A stretch of 64,000 nt of DNA from an uncultured delta proteobacterium (GCA_963838485.1 CAWIRY010000186.1:6159-70158); one strand, 5' to 3'. Counted from the stretch's first letter, positions 1 through 60,935 are shown. Numbers and translations are program-made. Notes: generated by a model not told the origin, from the sequence alone.

Positions 1-446
1 AACGAAGAGGGGCACCGGTCGAGGCCTATTTGCGCCTGGATGAAAAAGAAATCTGGGTCAGGTCCAATGTCTATACCCCGGATCATGTGGTGGTCTTGGA
101 TCATACCCTTTTACAAAATGTGGATGTGCTCCAGGGACTGAAACCTGGCGGATGGATTTTGATCAACGCCCCTGCCCCGCCCCCTGATCTCGGACGTTTT
201 TCGGGATTTCACCTGGCCTTTGTGGATGCCACCCGCATCGCCCTCCACCATCAGTTGGGTACCCGAACTCATCCTATCGCCAACACCGCCGTCTTGGGGG
301 CCTTCGCCCGGGTGCTGGGAATGCCTCCGCTGGAGGCCATTGTCCGGGCCATCGAAGAAGAAGTGCCGCGGAAAATTGAAGAGAACGTCCATGCGGCCGA
401 AGAGGCCTACGAAAGGGTGCAGACCGCAAGTGGAGAGAAACCATGA
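1..446 (+). CDS. 2-oxoacid:ferredoxin oxidoreductase gamma subunit, 5'-truncated by the window edge
   Basis: The reading frame of ORF 30..446 stays open back to base 3 (..GAPVEAYLRLDEKEI..), so the N-terminus lies outside the window. The sequence looks like the C-terminal half of PorG/KorC-type gamma subunits. Its stop overlaps the next start (ATGA at 443-446). OFOR alpha and beta subunits follow downstream. Confidence 0.8.
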   Translation, partial: RRGAPVEAYLRLDEKEIWVRSNVYTPDHVVVLDHTLLQNVDVLQGLKPGGWILINAPAPPPDLGRFSGFHLAFVDATRIALHHQLGTRTHPIANTAVLGAFARVLGMPPLEAIVRAIEEEVPRKIEENVHAAEEAYERVQTASGEKP

Positions 447-2197
447 CTGCCGAAACCAACCATTCCAAGCCAGTTTCTTTATTCATCCCCCAATCCTATC
501 TTTCCACTGAAGGCAACAAGACGGGTTCCTGGCGCTTTCTCAGACCCCGTTATGATGAAAAAACCGCCCCCTGCGGTGCCGCCTGTCCGGCCGGGGAAGA
601 TATCGGTCGCATCGAGATGCTCACCAGTCAGGGTCAGCTTAAAGAAGCCTGGGAAACGATTCTCCTGGAAAACCCTTTTCCGGGCGTCTGCGGACGGGTC
701 TGTTATCATCCCTGTGAAACGGTTTGTAACCGGGGACCTTTTGATGAAACCGTGGCTATTTCCGTCATCGAGCGCTTCCTGCCGGAAAATGCCGCCCGTT
801 ATAGTTTAAAGCCGACATGGCCACGAGAGGCTTCCAAAAAACAAAAGATCGCCGTCGTGGGCGCGGGTCCCAGCGGTCTGGCCGCTGCCTATTTTCTGAC
901 CTTACTGGGGTACTCCTGTGATGTCTTTGAGGCCATGCCCGAACCCGGAGGGGTGCTCCGCTGGGGGATTCCCAATTATCGTCTTCCCCTCCTCCCCTTA
1001 CGCCGGGAAATAGAGCAGATCATTCGGGTCGGGTTTGCCGTTCATTTGGGAAAGTCTCTGCCCCCGGGATTTCTGGAAGAAGCCCGGGGTCGATATGATG
1101 CGGTCTTTATAGGCTGCGGCCTTTCCCGTACCCCGAATCTGTCCATCCCCGGAGAAGACCTGGCAGGCGTGGAAGAAGGGTTGTCTTTCCTCAAGAAGGT
1201 CAATCAGGAAAATATTCCAGCCCTGGAGGGGCAAGTGGCTGTCCTGGGGGGCGGCAATACGGCCATCGATGTGGCCCGCTCGGTGATGCGGCTCGGGGGA
1301 AAGGCGGTCATTCTTTATCGCCGTCGGCGCCAGGATATGCCGGCCTTTGAAGAGGAAATTCAGATGGCCCTGGAGGAGGGTGTGGAATTACGGGAACTGT
1401 CGGCCCCGGTCCGCATCGACCCGGACGGTGAGGATTTTCTGCTCACCTGGCAGCAAATGCAGGTGGTTGATATGGATCCCCGGGGACGGGCCAGGGTCGC
1501 ACCTGTTTCGCAAAAAACCGAATCCCTCCGATGCACCCGGATCTTCAAGGCCGTCGGTCTTACGGCCTCGGAAGGATGGACTAATCCGCCAGTGCAGGGC
1601 CAGGACGTTTTATCCCTGACCAATACCGTCCTGGTAACACAGCCAAATGACGTGGTGAGGGTTTACGGCGGGGACCTGGCCGCGGCTATCAAGAGTGTGG
1701 TTCACGCCGTTGCCTCGGGCAAGGAAGCGGCCTTGGCCTTGGATATCCTTTTTCAAAAAGGGGGCCGGGCCGTCGAGTCCGAACTCAAGGCCTGTCAAGT
1801 GGGTAACGGTCCTTCCCTTTCTTTTGAAATAGTTCTAAAAGGACCCCGGTGCCGGCGGAGCCCCCATGTGGTTCACTATGAGGAAATCAATACCGACCAT
1901 TTCCAGTTCAGTCCCCGGATTGTCAAGCCCCGGCTGCTGAAAGAAGAACGGGTCCGGTCTTTTGCCGAAATCGACCTCAATATTTCAGCTAACCTGGCCA
2001 TGGGCGAGGCGAAACGGTGTTTTAATTGCGGGCTGTGCAACCAGTGCGACAACTGTCGCCTGTTTTGTCCGGACTTGTCGGTCATCCGGGAAGACACCCC
2101 CCAGGGACGCCGGATCGATTACGATTACTGTAAAGGCTGCGGCATCTGCGTGGTGGAATGTCCGCGCAATGCCATGGTACTGGAGGAAGAAATATGA
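443..2197 (+). CDS. GltD/NfnB-like NAD(P)H:flavin oxidoreductase fused to a C-terminal 2x[4Fe-4S] OFOR delta-type ferredoxin domain
   Basis: N-terminal Cys-rich region (CGAACPAGEDI..VCGRVCYHPCETVCNRG). FAD motif KIAVVGAGPSGLAAAYFL and a second dinucleotide motif VAVLGGGNTAIDVARS. The C-terminus carries CFNCGLCNQCDNCRLFCP and CKGCGICVVECP. Translationally coupled to the gamma subunit. Confidence 0.8.
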   Translation: MTAETNHSKPVSLFIPQSYLSTEGNKTGSWRFLRPRYDEKTAPCGAACPAGEDIGRIEMLTSQGQLKEAWETILLENPFPGVCGRVCYHPCETVCNRGPFDETVAISVIERFLPENAARYSLKPTWPREASKKQKIAVVGAGPSGLAAAYFLTLLGYSCDVFEAMPEPGGVLRWGIPNYRLPLLPLRREIEQIIRVGFAVHLGKSLPPGFLEEARGRYDAVFIGCGLSRTPNLSIPGEDLAGVEEGLSFLKKVNQENIPALEGQVAVLGGGNTAIDVARSVMRLGGKAVILYRRRRQDMPAFEEEIQMALEEGVELRELSAPVRIDPDGEDFLLTWQQMQVVDMDPRGRARVAPVSQKTESLRCTRIFKAVGLTASEGWTNPPVQGQDVLSLTNTVLVTQPNDVVRVYGGDLAAAIKSVVHAVASGKEAALALDILFQKGGRAVESELKACQVGNGPSLSFEIVLKGPRCRRSPHVVHYEEINTDHFQFSPRIVKPRLLKEERVRSFAEIDLNISANLAMGEAKRCFNCGLCNQCDNCRLFCPDLSVIREDTPQGRRIDYDYCKGCGICVVECPRNAMVLEEEI

Positions 2198-2230
2198 TCG
2201 TCGAAGTATGTTATTAAGTTATCGTTGTAT

Positions 2231-2381
2231 TACAGCGACACTTTTTTCGTCATTCCCGAATGTCTTTATCGGGAATCCAGATTTTTCAAAAAAATAAGAG
2301 AATCAACTTCCCTGGATTCCGGCTTAAAGCATGCCGGAATGACGGATAAAGAAACGCGTTGGTAAAAAAATTCGCGTAGTA
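2231..2381. repeat. MITE-like palindromic intergenic repeat, family R1, copy A
   Basis: Inverted arms CGTCATTCCCGA..TCGGGAATCCAG (2248-2280) and CTGGATTCCGGC..GCCGGAATGACG (2312-2345), each itself a hairpin. The outer ends, tacagcgacactttttt and taaaaaaattcgcgtagta, are also inverted. Related copies sit at 18990-19099 and 61022-61182. Confidence 0.6.
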
Positions 2382-2458
2382 TTAGCCCAATAACCTAATG
2401 ATCGATAACTCAGAGACAAAAAGGTCCAATTTGTACGGGGTAGACTAAAGGAAAAATA

Positions 2459-3637
2459 ATGAAAAAGGTCTTGGAAGGAAGCCAGGCCGTTGCCGAGGCG
2501 GTGCGTTCGGCCCGGGTTGAGGTGATTTCAGCCTATCCCATAACACCTCAAACCCATATCGTCGAAAGGCTTTCGGATTTCTGTGCCGACGGCTCGCTCA
2601 AAGCCCGATTTTTGCGGGTGGAGAGCGAGCATTCCGCCCTGGCGGCCCTGATCGGGGCCGCCAGCACCGGGGCCCGTACCTTTACGGCCACCTCTTCCCA
2701 GGGGCTGGCCCTGATGCACGAATTACTGCACTGGGCCGCGGCGGCCAGACTGCCCATCGTCATGGCCGAGGTCAATCGGGCCCTGGCCCCGGGTTGGAAC
2801 ATCTGGGCCGATCAGACCGACAGCCTGGCCCAGAGGGACACCGGTTGGATGCAACTGTACTGTGAAACCGGGCAGGAGGTCCTGGATACCACCTTGCAGG
2901 CTTATTGCTTAGCCGAATCGGTCAATCTTCCGGTCATGGTCATCCTGGACGCCTTTTTTCTTTCCCATACCTATGAACCGGTGGATGTGCCGGACCAGGA
3001 AGCGGTGGACCGGTTTCTTCCTCCCTTTCAGCCCAAGTTTCAATTAGACACCCAAAACCCTTGTGCCCTCGGACAAATGGCCCCGCCGGCCGTTTACATG
3101 GAAATGCGCCACAGCCTCCAGATGGCCATGGAAGAAACCCTGGGCCGATTTTCTGAAATGGAAAATAGTTTTGAAAAAATCTTCGGCCGCAGGTATGGGC
3201 CCGTGGAACCGATGGAATGTGAGGATGCCGAAATCATCCTGGTCACTTCGGGAACCATAACCAGTACGGGCCGGCAGTTTCTTCAGGATCGACGCCTCCA
3301 AGGTGAAAAAGCAGGCCTGCTCAAGGTAAAGATGTTTCGGCCTTTCCCCTATGAATTAATCCGACGGCATCTTGGGGCGGCTAAAAAGGTCGCTGTCATC
3401 GACCGGAATTTTTCTTTTGGGGCCAGCGGCATTTTTGCCCAGGAAATACGGGCCGCTCTTTGTAGTCTCCCCCAACGGCCTATAGTCTTTGGGTATATTG
3501 CCGGCCTTGGGGGGCGGGATGTGACCCTGAGCACCCTGGAAGAAATTTACCGAAACACAAAAGAAGAGGATTCCCCCTCTCAGGAAAGCCTTTGGGTGGG
3601 GCTTCACGAGGTGAGTCATGACAATGGACCTTCCTGA
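2459..3637 (+). CDS. 2-oxoacid:ferredoxin oxidoreductase alpha subunit (PorA/VorA/KorA type)
   Basis: 392-aa ORF with an RBS (aagga) before the ATG. The N-terminus MKKVLEGSQAVAEAVRSARVEVISAYPITPQT is typical of OFOR alpha subunits. Its 3' end overlaps the beta subunit gene. Confidence 0.85.
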   Translation: MKKVLEGSQAVAEAVRSARVEVISAYPITPQTHIVERLSDFCADGSLKARFLRVESEHSALAALIGAASTGARTFTATSSQGLALMHELLHWAAAARLPIVMAEVNRALAPGWNIWADQTDSLAQRDTGWMQLYCETGQEVLDTTLQAYCLAESVNLPVMVILDAFFLSHTYEPVDVPDQEAVDRFLPPFQPKFQLDTQNPCALGQMAPPAVYMEMRHSLQMAMEETLGRFSEMENSFEKIFGRRYGPVEPMECEDAEIILVTSGTITSTGRQFLQDRRLQGEKAGLLKVKMFRPFPYELIRRHLGAAKKVAVIDRNFSFGASGIFAQEIRAALCSLPQRPIVFGYIAGLGGRDVTLSTLEEIYRNTKEEDSPSQESLWVGLHEVSHDNGPS

Positions 3638-4502
3638 TCTTGAAACCATGTCCTCCGGACATGTGGGCTGCCCCGGCTGCGGGGCGGCCATAGCCATGAA
3701 ATTTGTTTTAAAGGCCCTGGGCGAAAAGACCATGATGGTCCTGCCGGCTTGCTGCTGGTCCATCATTGCCGGGGCCTATCCGCAATCGTCCTTACGAATT
3801 CCGCTGATCCACAGCGCCTTTGAAACCGGAGGCGCCGTGGCCAGCGGTGTGCGAGCGGCCTTGGATATGAAAGGCGATACGGAGACAACCGTCCTGACCT
3901 GGGCCGGAGACGGCGGGACCTTTGACATCGGCTTTCAGGCCCTGAGCGGCGCCGTAGAGCGGAATGAAGATTTCATCTATGTCTGTTATGACAACGAGGC
4001 CTATATGAATACCGGGGTCCAGCGGAGCTCTTCAACCCCTTACGGGGCCTGGACCACCACCACTCCGGGTTCGGATTGGAAAAAGATGCGCAAGAAAAAT
4101 ATCGTCGAGGCCCTGGTGGCCCACCGTATTCCTTATGCCGCCACGGCCAGCATCGCCTTTCCAGAAGACCTGGTCTACAAAGTGAAAAAGGCCAAATGGA
4201 TCAAGGGTTCCCGGTTTCTGCACATCTTTTCCAGTTGCCCCACGGGCTGGGGGCTCCCTTCGGAGTTGTCGGTCAAGATCGCCCGAATGGCCGTCCAAAC
4301 CAATATATTCCCCCTCTATGAAGTGGAAGACGGCCTTCGCTATACGATCAACTATATGTCCAAAGGCTATCTGGTCCGGGAGTACTTCAAACTCCAGGGC
4401 CGGTTCAAGCACCTGACCGAGGAGGACCTGGATCAGATCCAGGAAATGGTCAACGAGGACTGGGAGCTTTTGTTGCGTAAAGCCGGCCTATTTCAGACTT
4501 GA
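3618..4502 (+). CDS. 2-oxoacid:ferredoxin oxidoreductase beta subunit (TPP/[4Fe-4S]-binding)
   Basis: GHVGCPGCGAAIA cluster motif and a GDGGTFDIG..CYDNEAYMNTG TPP-binding signature. Overlaps the alpha gene by 20 nt. Confidence 0.85.
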   Translation: MTMDLPDLETMSSGHVGCPGCGAAIAMKFVLKALGEKTMMVLPACCWSIIAGAYPQSSLRIPLIHSAFETGGAVASGVRAALDMKGDTETTVLTWAGDGGTFDIGFQALSGAVERNEDFIYVCYDNEAYMNTGVQRSSSTPYGAWTTTTPGSDWKKMRKKNIVEALVAHRIPYAATASIAFPEDLVYKVKKAKWIKGSRFLHIFSSCPTGWGLPSELSVKIARMAVQTNIFPLYEVEDGLRYTINYMSKGYLVREYFKLQGRFKHLTEEDLDQIQEMVNEDWELLLRKAGLFQT

Positions 4503-7212: not shown

Positions 7213-8733
7213 ATGAGCAAAATCAAGAATGTGGTCATGTTGATGACCGATAGCTGGCAGTATAACTATACCGGCTGCTATGGAAACGATTGGATCAGGA
7301 CGCCGAACGTCGATGCCCTGGCCCGGGAGGGCACCGTGTTTGAAAATGCCTATGCGGAAGGGTTGCAGACCATCCCGGTCCGACGATCCCTGGCCACCGG
7401 CCGCTTCACCCTGCCCTTCGCCGGTTGGGTCAATCTGACCCCCCAGGAGACGTCCGTGGCCGACATCTGCTATCGCAACCACGTCCAATCCGCCCTCATT
7501 GCCGATTGTCCCATGCTGCATCTGGAAAAGTACGTCTACTCCCGCGGCTTCGATTACGTCCACTTCATCCGCGGACAGGAAGGGGACCATTTCTACGGCA
7601 ATGACCCCATCCGTCACGTCGATCCTCTGGACTTCCATAAACCGGTCTGCGATCTCGGCGCCACGACGGAAAGTGCCATCAGCCAGCTGACCCTCAAGGA
7701 ACTGAAGGGTTACCTGGCCCAACGACAGTTCTGGAAGACCGACAGGGACCAGCACGGGGCCCATACCTGCCGGGCGACCATCGATTATCTCGAGAGGGTC
7801 GTGGACAGGAGTAAACCATTTTTCCTCTGGGTGGATTTCTTCGATCCCCACGAGCCCTGGGACCCGCCGTCCGTCTACGATAGAGATCAAAAATGTCCCT
7901 ATAACCCGGATTATAAGGGCAAGAACCTGATTCTGCCCGTGCCCACGCCGTTGCACGAGGGCACGTACACCGAGGAGGAACTACATCACATCCGCATGCT
8001 TTTCGCCGAGAAAACCACCATGACCGACAAGTGGATCGGGGTGCTGCTCAACCGGATGAGGGAACTCGGATTGTTCGATAACACGATGATCATCTGGCTG
8101 TCCGACCACGGCGAACCCTTGGGTCACAAGGAGCACGGCCACGGGATCATGCGCAAATGCCGGCCCTGGCCTTACGAGGAACTGGTCCACGTGCCTATGG
8201 TCATCCGTCATCCCGACATCGAACCGCAACGGATCTCCTCCTTCATTCAGAACACCGACCTGACGTCGACGATTCTGGACTTCCTGGGCGTCAAGGACCC
8301 AGTGGCGGAAAAGGAGATGCAGGGCCGGAGCCTGCTGCCCCTCATAAACGGGGACGTCAAGAGGGTTCGGGACTTCGCTATCGCCGGCTACCACAACCTT
8401 TCCTGGAGCCTCTATACCGAGGATTGGTCTTACATTCACTGGCTCCATGAAGGGGAGTACAAGAACAGCCCTGAAGCGGCGATCGGGTTCTATGGGGATC
8501 TGATCAAGCAGATGGTTCCCGATATCTACCAACTGGGGCTAAAGCTGAGTCAGGAAGACCACATCTGGTCGTGCACGCCGGGCGCCAGGGCGGAGACGCC
8601 GACCGGTGACGAACTCTATTATCGAAAGAAAGACCCCTTCCAGTTGGAAAATGTGATCGGCGATGAGGGAAAAGTCGCCAACGATCTCTGGTTGCAACTT
8701 CGGGACACCCTGTTGGGGCTGAAGGTCAGTTAA
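7213..8733 (+). CDS. Sulfatase-family (alkaline-phosphatase superfamily) hydrolase with Thr at the nucleophile position
   Basis: ATG at 7213 preceded by aaggag. The N-terminus VVMLMTDSWQYNYTGCYGN..TPNVDALAREG..NAY matches the sulfatase fold. The signature reads LQ-T-IPVRRSLATGR where C/S-xPxR is expected (Thr codon at 7369-7371). No signal peptide. Confidence 0.75.
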   Translation: MSKIKNVVMLMTDSWQYNYTGCYGNDWIRTPNVDALAREGTVFENAYAEGLQTIPVRRSLATGRFTLPFAGWVNLTPQETSVADICYRNHVQSALIADCPMLHLEKYVYSRGFDYVHFIRGQEGDHFYGNDPIRHVDPLDFHKPVCDLGATTESAISQLTLKELKGYLAQRQFWKTDRDQHGAHTCRATIDYLERVVDRSKPFFLWVDFFDPHEPWDPPSVYDRDQKCPYNPDYKGKNLILPVPTPLHEGTYTEEELHHIRMLFAEKTTMTDKWIGVLLNRMRELGLFDNTMIIWLSDHGEPLGHKEHGHGIMRKCRPWPYEELVHVPMVIRHPDIEPQRISSFIQNTDLTSTILDFLGVKDPVAEKEMQGRSLLPLINGDVKRVRDFAIAGYHNLSWSLYTEDWSYIHWLHEGEYKNSPEAAIGFYGDLIKQMVPDIYQLGLKLSQEDHIWSCTPGARAETPTGDELYYRKKDPFQLENVIGDEGKVANDLWLQLRDTLLGLKVS

Positions 8734-58139: not shown

Positions 58140-60370
58140 AGGGCCTCCACTCGGCAGGGTACATAGCGGTGCATCGGCGTCCCCAGGAAGTCCCGGTTGG
58201 TGTTTTTCGTCAGGCGATTCACGTTGACCCCGTGGGCCTTGCCGTCATAAACCAGTCCAAAACCATGGGGGATAGCCACGTGACCCTTGCGGGCCGTTTC
58301 GGTAACCTCCAGTTCAACCTCCAAGGAACTAGCCTCGGTGGTCACCCGGACCTGCTGACCGTCCATGAGCTTCAAGGTTTCAGCGTCGGCCGGGTGCATG
58401 GCCAGGGTGCAGGCCCTTTTGCCCGCGTTCCAGGCCGGGTCCCGCATGAGGGTGTTGGCGTTCATGGAGGTGTGGCGTCCGGCCATGAGAATCAGGGGAA
58501 ATGAGGGATCGGGCCTCAGGGCCACTTCTTCCTGCTCGGCATCGATCCCCTTGACCGTATCTATAAGCTCCGGGATATATAAATCGATCCTGCGATCTTC
58601 GGTTTGAAGATGACCGAAATTATTGTTCGGGTCCACCTGTCCGACCCAGAGGCCTTCCGGATGGTCGATAATTTTCTGAAAGATCTCCTCACCCAGACCC
58701 ATTCCCGGGGTAAAGCCTACCCGGGCGGCGTTTTCCTGAAAGGCCTTGGGCGTGGTCTGAAGGATTCCCCAGAGCGTGGCCAGATGAACGGACCCCATGC
58801 CCTTTCCCAGGGTTTTTCCGAGAATAAAGGGCAGGACCTTCAAGGCCGCCGGTTCTTTCTGTGCATAGGCCATAAGGGCCGCACCAAAGGCCGCCCGGCT
58901 TCCTTCGGCGGCCTTATAGAGACTCTCGGGGATGGGTGGGATCAGGCCCAATCGATCGGCCAGCCGAAGATGGATCTCTCCGGCTTCCAACGGCTCTCCG
59001 TCGGGTTCAATGATGGGCCTCCGCATCTGGAAAAAGATGCCCGGATAAGTAAGGGCAAAAAAGATCCCGTCCCAGGACTCAAAACCGGACCGGGCCGGAA
59101 GCACATAGTGGGACAATAAGGCCGTTTCCGTCATGGCCAGCTCGGAAGTCACCAACAGATCCAGACGCTTGAAGGCCTGTTCATAGGCCGTGGTATCCGC
59201 GTAGGAACGCAAGGGATTGGAGGCGGAGACGATGACCGCCCGCAGACGATCCGGGCGATCGGAGAGGATCTCCTCGGGCATGGCATTGGGTGGAAAGGTG
59301 GCCGAGACCGGGAATATATTGGTGGTCATGGTCCGCCAGGTCTTGGGATTCCGCTCATCGGAATGGGCGCCGGTAGGCATCAAATGGCCGGGGAAAATGG
59401 TGCCCCCGGGCACACAGATCCGCCCGCAGATGGCTTGTAAGGTCGCGGCCAGGTAGGATGAGACGGCGCTGTGGCGATTCATAAAGAGGCCGAGGTCATA
59501 ACGCAGAGTGGATTTGCGGGTGGCAAACAGACGGCTGATCTCCTGGACCTGATCGAAATCAAGGTGACAGGTCCGGACAGCCGACCGGGCATCAAAATTC
59601 GTATACAACGATTTTATGTTCTCAAACCCGGAGGTATGATTTTCGATATAGTCTTTTTTTTCCCAGCCTTCCTGGAGGATAATGGCGATCATGGCCCGAA
59701 GGAGAAGGGCATCCGTTCCCGGCCGAATCGGAAGATGCCTGTCGGCGATCTTGGCCGTTTCGGACAGGCGGGGGTCAACGACAATAAGGAGTTTATTAGG
59801 ATCCTTGGAGATACGCTGAAGGTGCCGGGGGGCCTGGGGGATCTGGTGGCTCTGCATACCGTTCCACCCTAATATCAGAAAGAGGTCCGTTTCCGCCACA
59901 TCGGGCACTCCGTGCAAATATTGTCGGCCGAACATGCGACCATGAACCCAGAACATCCCGGAAAATTCCTGGGCCAGGGCGCTGTAGTGATAATAAGAAC
60001 CAAGCCCCCTTAATAAACGGACCCCAAAGGCGGCCTCAAAATGACATCCCTGGCCGCCGCCGCCCATATAAGCAAAAGATCGGGGGCCGTACTGATCGAC
60101 GATGCCCTTGAGTTTGACGGCGATCTCACCAATGGCCTGATCCCAGGAGATACGCTCAAAACGGTCCCCCACCCGCTTCAAGGGGTATTTAAGACGATCG
60201 GCATGATGCTGATGATAAGCGACATTCATCCCTTTTCGGCAAACATACCCTTGGCTGCGGAGATTTTCCTTGTCCCCTTTAACCTTAACAATACGGTTGT
60301 TTTCGACTTCCACTTCCAGACCGCAGTTCTGGGCGCAAAGAACACAGCTTGTTTTGTGGGTTATTCCCAT
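58136..60370 (-). CDS. Cytoplasmic molybdopterin (bis-MGD) oxidoreductase with an N-terminal [4Fe-4S] motif, substrate unknown
   Basis: N-terminus HKTSCVLCAQNCGLEVEV..VCRKG (CX2CX3C..C). 744 aa, no twin-arginine signal. RBS aggagg. No in-frame TGA. Confidence 0.8.
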   Translation of the reverse strand: MGITHKTSCVLCAQNCGLEVEVENNRIVKVKGDKENLRSQGYVCRKGMNVAYHQHHADRLKYPLKRVGDRFERISWDQAIGEIAVKLKGIVDQYGPRSFAYMGGGGQGCHFEAAFGVRLLRGLGSYYHYSALAQEFSGMFWVHGRMFGRQYLHGVPDVAETDLFLILGWNGMQSHQIPQAPRHLQRISKDPNKLLIVVDPRLSETAKIADRHLPIRPGTDALLLRAMIAIILQEGWEKKDYIENHTSGFENIKSLYTNFDARSAVRTCHLDFDQVQEISRLFATRKSTLRYDLGLFMNRHSAVSSYLAATLQAICGRICVPGGTIFPGHLMPTGAHSDERNPKTWRTMTTNIFPVSATFPPNAMPEEILSDRPDRLRAVIVSASNPLRSYADTTAYEQAFKRLDLLVTSELAMTETALLSHYVLPARSGFESWDGIFFALTYPGIFFQMRRPIIEPDGEPLEAGEIHLRLADRLGLIPPIPESLYKAAEGSRAAFGAALMAYAQKEPAALKVLPFILGKTLGKGMGSVHLATLWGILQTTPKAFQENAARVGFTPGMGLGEEIFQKIIDHPEGLWVGQVDPNNNFGHLQTEDRRIDLYIPELIDTVKGIDAEQEEVALRPDPSFPLILMAGRHTSMNANTLMRDPAWNAGKRACTLAMHPADAETLKLMDGQQVRVTTEASSLEVELEVTETARKGHVAIPHGFGLVYDGKAHGVNVNRLTKNTNRDFLGTPMHRYVPCRVEAL

Positions 60371-60390
60371 ATATCCTCCTCCTGAAAAAA

Positions 60391-60813
60391 TTACCGGCTA
60401 AATTGTTCCCGCAGTTTATGAATAAGACCGCGCAACTCGCGCTTTTCATTTTCCGTAAAGGCCGCCAGGAATTCTTTGTTGGCCTCCTCGATCAGCTTCC
60501 TGGCCTCCAGTCCCGTCTCTTTCCCCTGCTTAGTCAGATGGATCTTTATGGAACGCCGATCATCGGGATTTCCCTTGCGTTCGATGAGCCCGGCCGCTTC
60601 CAAACGATCCAGAATGCCGGTCAAGGTGGCGCTGTCTAATTCAACCTTTTTCCCTAATTCACCGGCCATGATCTGATCCGCCTCGGCCAGGAATCCAAGG
60701 ACCATGGCCTGGACCGGAGTGATGCTGAGCCCCGATATCTTCTGGGTCATAAATTTTATGCCGGTCTGACTGGCTTTGGCTAATTGAAAAAAAATACAAT
60801 TATCGGATTTCAT
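60391..60813 (-). CDS. MarR-family transcriptional regulator
   Basis: 140 aa with a winged-helix pattern ..ITPVQAMVLGFLAE..MAGELGKKVELDSATLTGILDRLEAAGLIERK..DRR... Lies 20 nt upstream of the molybdoenzyme gene. Confidence 0.85.
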   Translation of the reverse strand: MKSDNCIFFQLAKASQTGIKFMTQKISGLSITPVQAMVLGFLAEADQIMAGELGKKVELDSATLTGILDRLEAAGLIERKGNPDDRRSIKIHLTKQGKETGLEARKLIEEANKEFLAAFTENEKRELRGLIHKLREQFSR

Positions 60814-60935
60814 ATTAAATCCCCATGCCCCTGTGGGGCGCTACGAAAAATGAAAATAAAACTTAGAAATAAATAGTTAAAAGTCTTTATTCTGAATTCT
60901 GACTCCTGAATTCTGACTCCTCAAATTTTATTCTC

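Follow-up and report, generated by a model that had tools for sequence, protein, structure and literature searches.

A chimeric delta subunit in a four-gene 2-oxoacid oxidoreductase operon of an uncultured delta proteobacterium, predicted to link the enzyme to NADP+

The first 4,502 nucleotides of a 64,000-nucleotide stretch from the draft genome of an uncultured delta proteobacterium (GCA_963838485.1 CAWIRY010000186.1:6159-70158; hereafter the window, G000:C186:6159-70158 in our own numbering) carry an operon of the 2-oxoacid:ferredoxin oxidoreductase (OFOR) type, in which the place of the small ferredoxin subunit, delta, is taken by a large chimeric flavoprotein. Four open reading frames (ORFs) run in the same direction, all on the plus strand, in the order gamma, fusion, alpha and beta, as an earlier note on this DNA had claimed and as ORF calls and domain profiles confirmed. 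The gamma subunit gene (PorC/VorC type; 3..446) matches PF01558 (E 7.7e-27) and TIGR02175 (130 bits, cut-off 81.1). The window edge truncates it at the 5' end; on the contig the complete gene (188 aa) occupies G000:C186:6038-6604, and the full-length ORF scores 142 bits with PF01558. Gamma is a separate subunit with a POR domain, the mark of a four-subunit OFOR of the Por/Vor type. The fusion gene (443..2197) encodes a protein of 584 aa that we read as a PorD with an inserted GltD/NfnB-like module for Fe-S clusters, flavin adenine dinucleotide (FAD) and NADPH. The alpha subunit gene (2459..3637; 392 aa) contains POR_N and PFOR_II domains (PF01855, 248 bits; PF17147, 90 bits), and the beta subunit gene (3618..4502; 294 aa) contains TPP_enzyme_C (PF02775) and a [4Fe-4S] site composed of C18, C21, C46 and C207. 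Gamma ends and the fusion gene begins within one ATGA at 443-446 (ACC-ATGA), with a GGAG ribosome-binding site upstream, which bears out the overlap described in the same note. The alpha and beta genes overlap by 20 nt, and alpha has its own ribosome-binding site. The operon is intact, all four ORFs being complete, with catalytic motifs present.

The fusion protein is built from several recognisable parts. Residues 21-40 (STEGNKTGSWRFLRPRYDEK; 503..562) align with the N-terminal arm of PorD from Methanosarcina acetivorans (9bt4_G), and the match extends over fusion residues 21-47 (pattern NKTGxWRxxRP) and PorD residues 12-39. Residues 40-118 (560..796) form a Fer4_20 Fe-S region with Cys 44/48/83/87/91/95, which matches PF14691 (E 8.5e-15) at profile positions 28-109 only. 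FAD and NADP(H) Rossmann domains occupy residues 130-440 (830..1762; PF07992, PF13450 and PF00070), with the motifs GAGPSG at 140-145 and GGGNTA at 269-274; this region aligns with NfnB (4ylf_B), StnC and NfnA. Inside it, Y292-R293-R294 (1316..1324), a predicted site for the NADPH 2'-phosphate, lines up with the YRR of Thermotoga maritima NfnB. The first segment of Fer4_20 is displaced to residues 503-530 (1949..2032; ending ...EAKRCFNCG, with C526 and C529), where it matches PF14691 positions 1-28 (E 0.0029); searched alone, these residues had Fer4_20 as their sole Pfam match. Finally, residues 530-583 (2030..2191) constitute a PorD-type 2x[4Fe-4S] ferredoxin domain, scoring 67 bits with NF040684 (PorD_Arch) and 56 bits with TIGR02179. 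Its cysteines are C532/535/538/542 and C563/566/569/573, and residues 532-582 align with residues 33-84 of PorD 9bt4_G. NCBIfam PorD models match the fusion at 527-583, and Pfam, too, recognises a 4Fe-4S motif at the C-terminus. Both hallmarks of a delta subunit, the arm and the doubled CxxCxxCxxxCP motif, are present about 490 residues apart, and the TIGR02179 score (56.0) lies under the cut-off of 60.05. The best whole-length NCBIfam model is NF009410 (PRK12771 'NAD(P)-binding protein'), which aligns residues 22-580 with profile positions 28-562 of 566 and scores 470.8 bits, below its curated cut-off of 516.

Since the PorD arm and the PorD domain flank the flavoprotein module, PorD is split, with the flavoprotein inserted inside it rather than joined simply end to end. 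The earlier note had described an N-terminal GltD-like module followed by a C-terminal PorD-like domain; both modules are there, although the former lies within PorD, preceded by the arm at 21-47. The inserted module itself is circularly permuted relative to NfnB, because the T. maritima protein aligns in two pieces (fusion residues 41-431 with NfnB 44-453, and residues 500-529 with NfnB 13-42) and because segment 503-530 corresponds to Fer4_20 positions 1-28. The first Cys pair, C526/C529, comes after the flavin domains and runs directly into the PorD CxxCxxCxxxCP motif; at this junction ...EAKRCFNC of the fusion faces ...EAQRCLQC of NfnB. The permuted order is colinear in the solved structures of StnC (8oh5_C) and of NfnA from NfnABC (9bov_A and 9n5u_A), so the permutation is a trait of this clade and not specific to the window gene.

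Conservation was assessed by aligning 34 homologs (37-85% identity). In the arm, N25, T27, G28, W30, R31 and P35 show little or no variation, with T27, G28 and W30 strictly invariant. Of the 16 Cys in the fusion, a number that would suffice for four [4Fe-4S] clusters, 15 are invariant: C44, C48, C87, C91 and C95 in the Fer4_20 region, C526 and C529 (together with their neighbours R525 and G530) in the displaced segment, and all eight of the ferredoxin domain; at C83, Cys is found in 22/34. Both GxGxxG motifs are invariant, as are Y292-R293-R294 (34/34) and R180, the equivalent of Arg201, the arginine at the FAD N5 of NfnB. At F302, which corresponds to Arg333 of PfNfnI-B, the column contains F, H, I, V or W and never Arg. 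An AlphaFold2 model, built with the homolog alignment, gave a single compact fold with a pLDDT (predicted local distance difference test) of 90.7 and a pTM (predicted template modelling score) of 0.89. Low scores were confined to the N-terminal arm, as would be expected of a stretch that packs against other subunits. Foldseek returned StnC, NfnABC-NfnA, NfnB/NfnI-L, GltD and dihydropyrimidine dehydrogenase (DPD) as the top structures, the best matches being StnC (8oh5_C) and NfnABC-NfnA (9bov_A, 9n5u_A), with TM 0.71-0.74 over about 620 columns.

The catalytic subunits resemble those of the M. acetivorans enzyme as well. Alpha matches PorA (9bt4_B) with E 1e-99, and its AYPITPQTH (residues 25-33) is identical in the two proteins; beta matches PorB (9bt4_C) with E 1e-74, its C18, C21, C46 and C207 aligning with Cys of PorB. 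The Thr of YPITP, the Arg of 'NRA' and the Asn of 'YMNTG', which we take to be binders of the 2-oxo-carboxylate in pyruvate:ferredoxin oxidoreductase (PFOR), are kept. All NCBIfam equivalogs scored below cut-off for alpha (PorA_Arch NF040682, 490.7 against 550; VorA, 413 against 646; PorA, 411 against 625), and so did PorB for beta (364 against 405); only the 'subfamily' model NF008818 was passed by beta (413.7, cut-off 405). Because no equivalog cut-off was reached, the class of substrate is left within the small or branched 2-oxoacids: pyruvate, a branched-chain or another small 2-oxoacid would be the likely substrate, the profiles not fixing the class.

The chimeric gene is widespread. A word-indexed protein search yielded 4,932 proteins at E <= 1e-20, of which the best 120 are all about 565-611 aa long and 60-94% identical to the window protein; they come from Syntrophobacterales, 'Deltaproteobacteria' and Nitrospirota metagenome-assembled genomes (MAGs) and bear generic annotations such as 'FAD-dependent oxidoreductase' or '2-oxoacid:acceptor oxidoreductase delta subunit'. 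In species-representative genomes, at least 579 confirmed stretches were obtained among the 600 matches listed, and 80 loci from these matches were kept as a sample for synteny. OFOR genes adjoin the fusion in 79/80 sampled loci, in two orders. Gamma-fusion-alpha-beta (G-F-A-B) is found in Desulfobacterota, Chloroflexota, WOR-3, Bacteroidota/Ignavibacteria, Calditrichota and Planctomycetota, and gamma-alpha-beta-fusion (G-A-B-F) in Actinomycetota, Alpha- and Betaproteobacteria and Acidobacteriota. No separate delta subunit gene was seen beside the fusion gene in the loci looked at. Cultured carriers include Desulfacinum hydrothermale, Georgenia thermotolerans and Cellulomonas humilata. For the G-A-B-F loci we considered a three-subunit form like that of 2-oxoglutarate oxidoreductase (KGOR), with gamma fused to alpha, and rejected it, gamma being a separate ORF in the three loci of Betaproteobacteria/Actinomycetota taken for this purpose (L045, L082 and L068).

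In an even sample of the window's phylum, a match at E <= 1e-90 was present in 61/301 genomes and 43/200 genera; most matches span residues ~14-583, with two or three copies in some genomes. Within the same genus the fusion was found in only two of seven other genomes, hence its distribution is patchy. The rarity implied by the earlier note was not borne out: besides its frequency in the phylum, the fusion has a best-matching NCBIfam model (NF009410) and a passing mention in the literature on DsrL, and the check on its spread that the note had called for showed it to be common across bacterial phyla. Some shorter matches in the phylum cover residues ~14-440 or 14-490 only, in open frames of 514-584 aa (G075:C99:10215-11465, G142:C38:40723-41979, G173:C85:1308-2573 and G290:C10:200681-202096); such proteins may be variants in which the C-terminal part has diverged.

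Starting from the observed gene content, domain order, cofactor-ligand motifs, motif conservation and synteny, we propose, with a probability of roughly two in three, that the four genes encode one Por/Vor-type, ferredoxin-independent 2-oxoacid:NADP+ oxidoreductase whose delta subunit has a built-in ferredoxin:NADP+ reductase. The 2-oxoacid would be decarboxylated on thiamine pyrophosphate at the alpha/beta active site. Single electrons would then pass from the [4Fe-4S] cluster of beta through the two PorD-type clusters (residues 530-583) and the two GltD-type clusters, with ligands among Cys 44/48/(83)/87/91/95 and the displaced C526/C529, to FAD, which would gather two electrons and reduce NADP+ by hydride transfer. 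The net reaction in the predicted oxidative direction would be 2-oxoacid + CoA + NADP+ -> acyl-CoA + CO2 + NADPH, with neither free ferredoxin nor bifurcation.

That electrons are wired directly to a pyridine nucleotide had been suggested by the earlier note, and the suggestion is supported by the Rossmann motifs, the YRR, the 16 Cys, the predicted fold and the synteny. The closest solved relatives, StnC and NfnABC-NfnA, are moreover the NADPH-entry subunits of a linear Fe-S wire (PMC10482914); the GltD-like FAD of StnC is non-bifurcating and feeds a linear [4Fe-4S] chain (PMC10482914). Stand-alone NfnB-like proteins without NfnA behaved in assays as non-energy-conserving ferredoxin:NADP+ reductases (PMC12221290). 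The YRR holds the 2'-phosphate of NADPH in NfnB, and in assays DsrL-2, which has this motif, used only NADP(H), whereas DsrL-1, without it, used NAD(H) (PMC7596348). As the YRR is invariant in the fusion homologs, NADP(H) is probably preferred over NAD(H). It is somewhat more likely than not that the enzyme is a bacterial, modular counterpart of the eukaryotic pyruvate:NADP+ oxidoreductase (PNO), a true and widespread ferredoxin-independent 2-oxoacid:NADP+ oxidoreductase.

Several points weigh against this proposal. Our full-text literature search retrieved neither a study nor an assay of an OFOR whose delta subunit contains a flavoprotein. The PorD clusters lie near the surface in the solved four-subunit PFOR, so that an external ferredoxin could still dock. 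Given the variability at C83, a residue other than Cys may ligate one of the clusters, as happens in NfnB and DPD, or that cluster may be altered. The profiles do not single out a substrate, alpha being matched best by an archaeal PorA model, under its cut-off, and beta passing only a subfamily model named after VorB. Finally, about nine further OFOR or indolepyruvate oxidoreductase (IOR) alpha-like loci exist in the genome (on G000:C131, C200, C67, C137, C138, C91, C107 and C4), and the physiological role of the operon can therefore not be assigned by elimination.

The main rival to NADP+ reduction has the same complex and the same wire run in reverse, as a 2-oxoacid (pyruvate) synthase driven by NADPH, which would assimilate acetyl-CoA and CO2; the earlier note had allowed for this direction too. 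OFORs are reversible, and a GltD-like module accepts NADPH in glutamate synthase and in StnC (PMC10482914); by our own rough estimate, CO2 at tens of mM and pyruvate at ~10 uM would shift the pyruvate/acetyl-CoA couple by about +100 mV from its standard value of about -500 mV and so bring it towards a highly reduced NADPH pool. At standard potentials, however, this direction is disfavoured by about 180 mV per electron for two electrons, and no signature of bifurcation that could lift the electrons was recognised, F302 replacing Arg333 and NfnA being absent. The chimeric-delta family also occurs in aerobic Actinomycetota and Proteobacteria, and the regulator gene upstream of the operon, of the XRE/cupin type, looks like one for catabolic induction; we consider the reverse direction unlikely. 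It is quite unlikely, too, that ferredoxin or flavodoxin is the main acceptor and the flavoprotein an auxiliary serving NADP+ overflow, activation or protection of clusters, or reduction of another acceptor such as polysulfide or disulfides, as was once suggested for SudA. Such an arrangement would account for the complete PorD-type domain with its eight invariant Cys, the ferredoxin-facing exit of solved PFORs, and other acceptor roles have been ascribed to relatives of NfnB in the literature (SudA is mentioned in PMC5736913). It sits poorly with an NADPH site and inter-domain Fe-S ligands that are strictly conserved from phylum to phylum, with the constant company of OFOR genes and with the lack of a separate delta gene beside the fusion. 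A flavin-based enzyme that bifurcates or confurcates electrons between NADP(H), ferredoxin and the 2-oxoacid is brought to mind by the homology of the module to NfnB, whose FAD does bifurcate. Huang et al. distinguish bifurcating NfnB proteins from simple ferredoxin:NADP+ reductases sharing that fold by nfnA lying upstream, a longer N-terminus and an Arg333 close to the flavin (numbering of PfNfnI-B; PMC12221290), and the window protein has none of these: no nfnA adjoins the fusion gene, whose neighbours are the OFOR gamma and alpha genes, the N-terminal segment of NfnB is displaced to 503-530, and F302 stands at the Arg333 position. Together with the non-bifurcating FAD of StnC and NfnABC-NfnA (PMC10482914), this makes a bifurcating function very improbable.

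A further possibility concerns the 261-bp intergenic gap between the fusion and alpha genes (2198..2458, from the ORF boundaries), which the earlier note had seen as containing a miniature inverted-repeat transposable element (MITE) that splits the operon. An insertion here might have uncoupled or silenced alpha and beta and left the locus decaying. The gap is unusually long for this type of operon, the spacing between fusion and alpha being about 5 bp in most G-F-A-B loci, and hairpins occur in it, together with a single weak terminator-like site at 2222-2238 that precedes a T-run. That single site is not above expectation, however (mean of 0.6 in shuffled sequence), the four ORFs are intact with catalytic motifs, and alpha keeps its own ribosome-binding site. 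Moreover, the two closest lineages (85% and 80% identity) have gaps of 347 bp (L086:5256-5602) and 133 bp (L088:5256-5388), respectively, in the same place, with all genes intact. Decay of the locus is hardly credible, and of the claim in the note the gap and its repeat stand, whereas the MITE label is not established and the operon is not obviously split.

The repeat itself is a low-copy, MITE-like intergenic sequence of about 150 nt (2228..2375) with imperfect inverted arms. The arms (2241-2280 and 2312-2351) form an imperfect 40-nt inverted repeat with 78% complementarity, and each arm is itself a small hairpin, ATTCCCGA-N9-TCGGGAAT and ATTCCGGC-N9-GCCGGAAT. Three to four copies or part-copies were detected in the 5-Mb, 212-contig draft genome: one at G000:C176:3672-3816 (79% identity over 148 nt), a third two-armed copy with a different spacer at G000:C193 ~7954-8040, and a lone left arm at G000:C41:9733-9778, whose TGGCAC-like start is, by eye, not kept in the window copy. 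Every copy falls between genes, at least two of them a short way ahead of a gene start. Short direct repeats at the repeat ends (GTATTA) differ between copies, and no clear duplication of a target site was recognised. With its three to four copies, its solo arms and no such duplication, the element is repeat-derived DNA for which neither the label MITE nor transposition is established. A scan for promoters and terminators gave one weak site of each, with no excess over shuffled sequence. The idea that the repeat carries a sigma-54 or sigma-70 promoter was rejected: the one sigma-70-like site, a weak one, lies within the last part of the fusion gene, and counts were no higher than in shuffled sequence. 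The gaps of the two relatives contain unrelated hairpin-rich sequence, only the gene ends aligning with the window. The site between fusion and alpha thus looks like a local hot spot where the lineage gathers unrelated, hairpin-rich small insertions while the flanking genes are kept, a local peculiarity of the window locus.

Directly upstream of gamma lies a gene for a 200-aa regulator with an XRE helix-turn-helix and a cupin domain (G000:C186:5307-5909, ~250-850 nt before the window start). It also precedes the operon in the relatives L086 and L088, and a match was obtained in 12/80 sampled loci, on the opposite strand in one of them (L035). Ten of these twelve belong to Desulfobacterota or Deltaproteobacteria, one to a Thermodesulfobacteriota-type Desulfobacteraceae-like MAG set and one to Candidatus Schekmanbacteria (L017). 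The conserved XRE/cupin gene suggests substrate-inducible expression of the operon and is a candidate for a small-molecule-responsive regulator of the OFOR. Farther upstream come an enoyl-CoA hydratase gene and, in the opposite orientation, a fusion of acetyl-CoA hydrolase/transferase with GNAT, neither of them conserved in the relatives; the latter is a 624-aa ORF (L005:1775-3649, minus strand) with N- and C-terminal acetyl-CoA hydrolase/transferase domains followed by a C-terminal GNAT acetyltransferase domain. From 4558 onward an unrelated locus for an outer-membrane channel and a major facilitator superfamily (MFS) protein begins.

The genome harbours a large repertoire of 2-oxoacid oxidoreductases, with the chimeric delta at one locus only. 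Beside this single chimeric-delta gene we counted eight other GltD-like paralogs in other contexts. At least seven GltD/NfnB-like modules besides that of the fusion are located at G000:C44:7242-8669, C133:17619-19181, C45:15159-16649, C98:54851-56044 and 59784-60839, C185:27086-28342 and C14:3061-3909. Open frames of great length (694-1476 aa) enclose several of them, and a single in-frame TAA interrupts the C133 match. These modules may belong to StnC/NfnABC-like or Hdr-linked flavoproteins.

Coupling of an OFOR to a pyridine nucleotide by way of an additional flavoprotein is known already, from KGOR, from phenylglyoxylate dehydrogenase (Pad) and from PNO, and the module itself occurs in GltD, NfnB, DsrL, StnC and the Cac_0764-type reductases. 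The KGOR of Azoarcus evansii (KorABC), studied by Ebenau-Jehle, Boll and Fuchs in 2003, reportedly contains thiamine pyrophosphate, Fe-S clusters and FAD and reduces NADP+ directly; it is said to comprise three subunits with a two-subunit core of the KorAB type and to be specific for 2-oxoglutarate. Like it, the window locus would be an NADP+-linked OFOR acting via a GltD-family flavoprotein encoded with the OFOR genes; unlike it, the locus has a four-gene Por/Vor core with a separate gamma and a flavoprotein embedded in PorD. In Pad, the flavoprotein is a separate epsilon subunit and delta is free, and in PNO a cytochrome P450 reductase (CPR)-type FMN/FAD domain is fused to a single-chain PFOR. 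Both resemble the present system in tying an OFOR core to a pyridine nucleotide via an added flavoprotein, NADH in the case of PadEFGHI, and neither is known to have a flavoprotein inside PorD. The NCBIfam models for PadE, PadF, PadG and PadI match gamma, the delta part of the fusion, alpha and beta, all below cut-off, and the model for PadH (epsilon) was absent from the matches to the flavoprotein core at E <= 1e-20. The flavoprotein subunit of the 2-oxoglutarate:NADP+ oxidoreductase of A. evansii has been placed in the GltD family (PMC10134865).

PorABCD of M. acetivorans (9bt4) is the best solved match for alpha, beta and both parts of PorD and shares the gamma-delta-alpha-beta order, but its delta is a 2x[4Fe-4S] protein of 85 aa, whereas here about 490 flavoprotein residues stand between the arm and the ferredoxin domain. 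The modules of StnC from Sporomusa ovata StnABC (8oh5) and of NfnA from Bfu-type NfnABC (9bov, 9n5u) are the closest solved relatives of the inserted one (E 1e-66 to 1e-76), with the same permuted order and YRR; they differ in being fused to NuoG- or FdhF-like domains and docked on a bifurcating module of the HydBC type, not on an OFOR. With reductases of the NfnB/Cac_0764 type (4ylf, 5jca; PMC12221290) the fusion shares the Fer4_20, FAD and NADPH module, the YRR and R180, the equivalent of Arg201. In contrast to them, it has the first 28 Fer4_20 positions after the flavin domains, no NfnA and no Arg333, and its module is covalently joined to PorD instead of meeting a free ferredoxin. DsrL (PMC7596348) has a comparable layout of Fe-S region, FAD/NAD(P) domains, a linker of ~60-100 aa and C-terminal 2x[4Fe-4S], with a YRR in DsrL-2; the fusion gene, however, is situated inside an OFOR operon without linkage to dsrAB and is not counted as dsrL. 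The survey of DsrL explicitly left out DsrL-like genes located beside those for pyruvate/ketoisovalerate:ferredoxin oxidoreductase (Loeffler et al. 2020, criterion 3; PMC7596348); the linkage to por/vor has therefore been seen before, yet not studied. Apart from that exclusion, we found no description in the literature of a permuted module inserted into the PorD of a four-subunit Por/Vor enzyme; a Pelobacter genome paper, a paper on deep-sea Chloroflexi and a review of Nfn contain none.

Overall, the window locus is an ordinary member of a widespread class. Genome-based metabolic models take OFORs of the Por/Vor type as linked to ferredoxin. If the proposed function is true, the low-potential electrons of 2-oxoacids would be spent on NADPH and not conserved through ferredoxin by Rnf, hydrogenases or bifurcating enzymes, and 2-oxoacids would be oxidised, or made at high CO2 and low product, with NADP(H) alone. 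Predictions of energy yield and NADPH supply would change for many sulfate-reducing and syntrophic bacteria, Chloroflexota, Actinomycetota and Proteobacteria, and the reconstruction of carbon and redox flux would be altered for many genomes in which an ordinary PFOR/VOR (PFOR or its Vor-type counterpart) plus an 'FAD-dependent oxidoreductase' is annotated. The chimeric delta is also a clear example of modular evolution, in which the permuted GltD/NfnB module of StnC/NfnABC has come to lie within the small ferredoxin subunit of a different enzyme.

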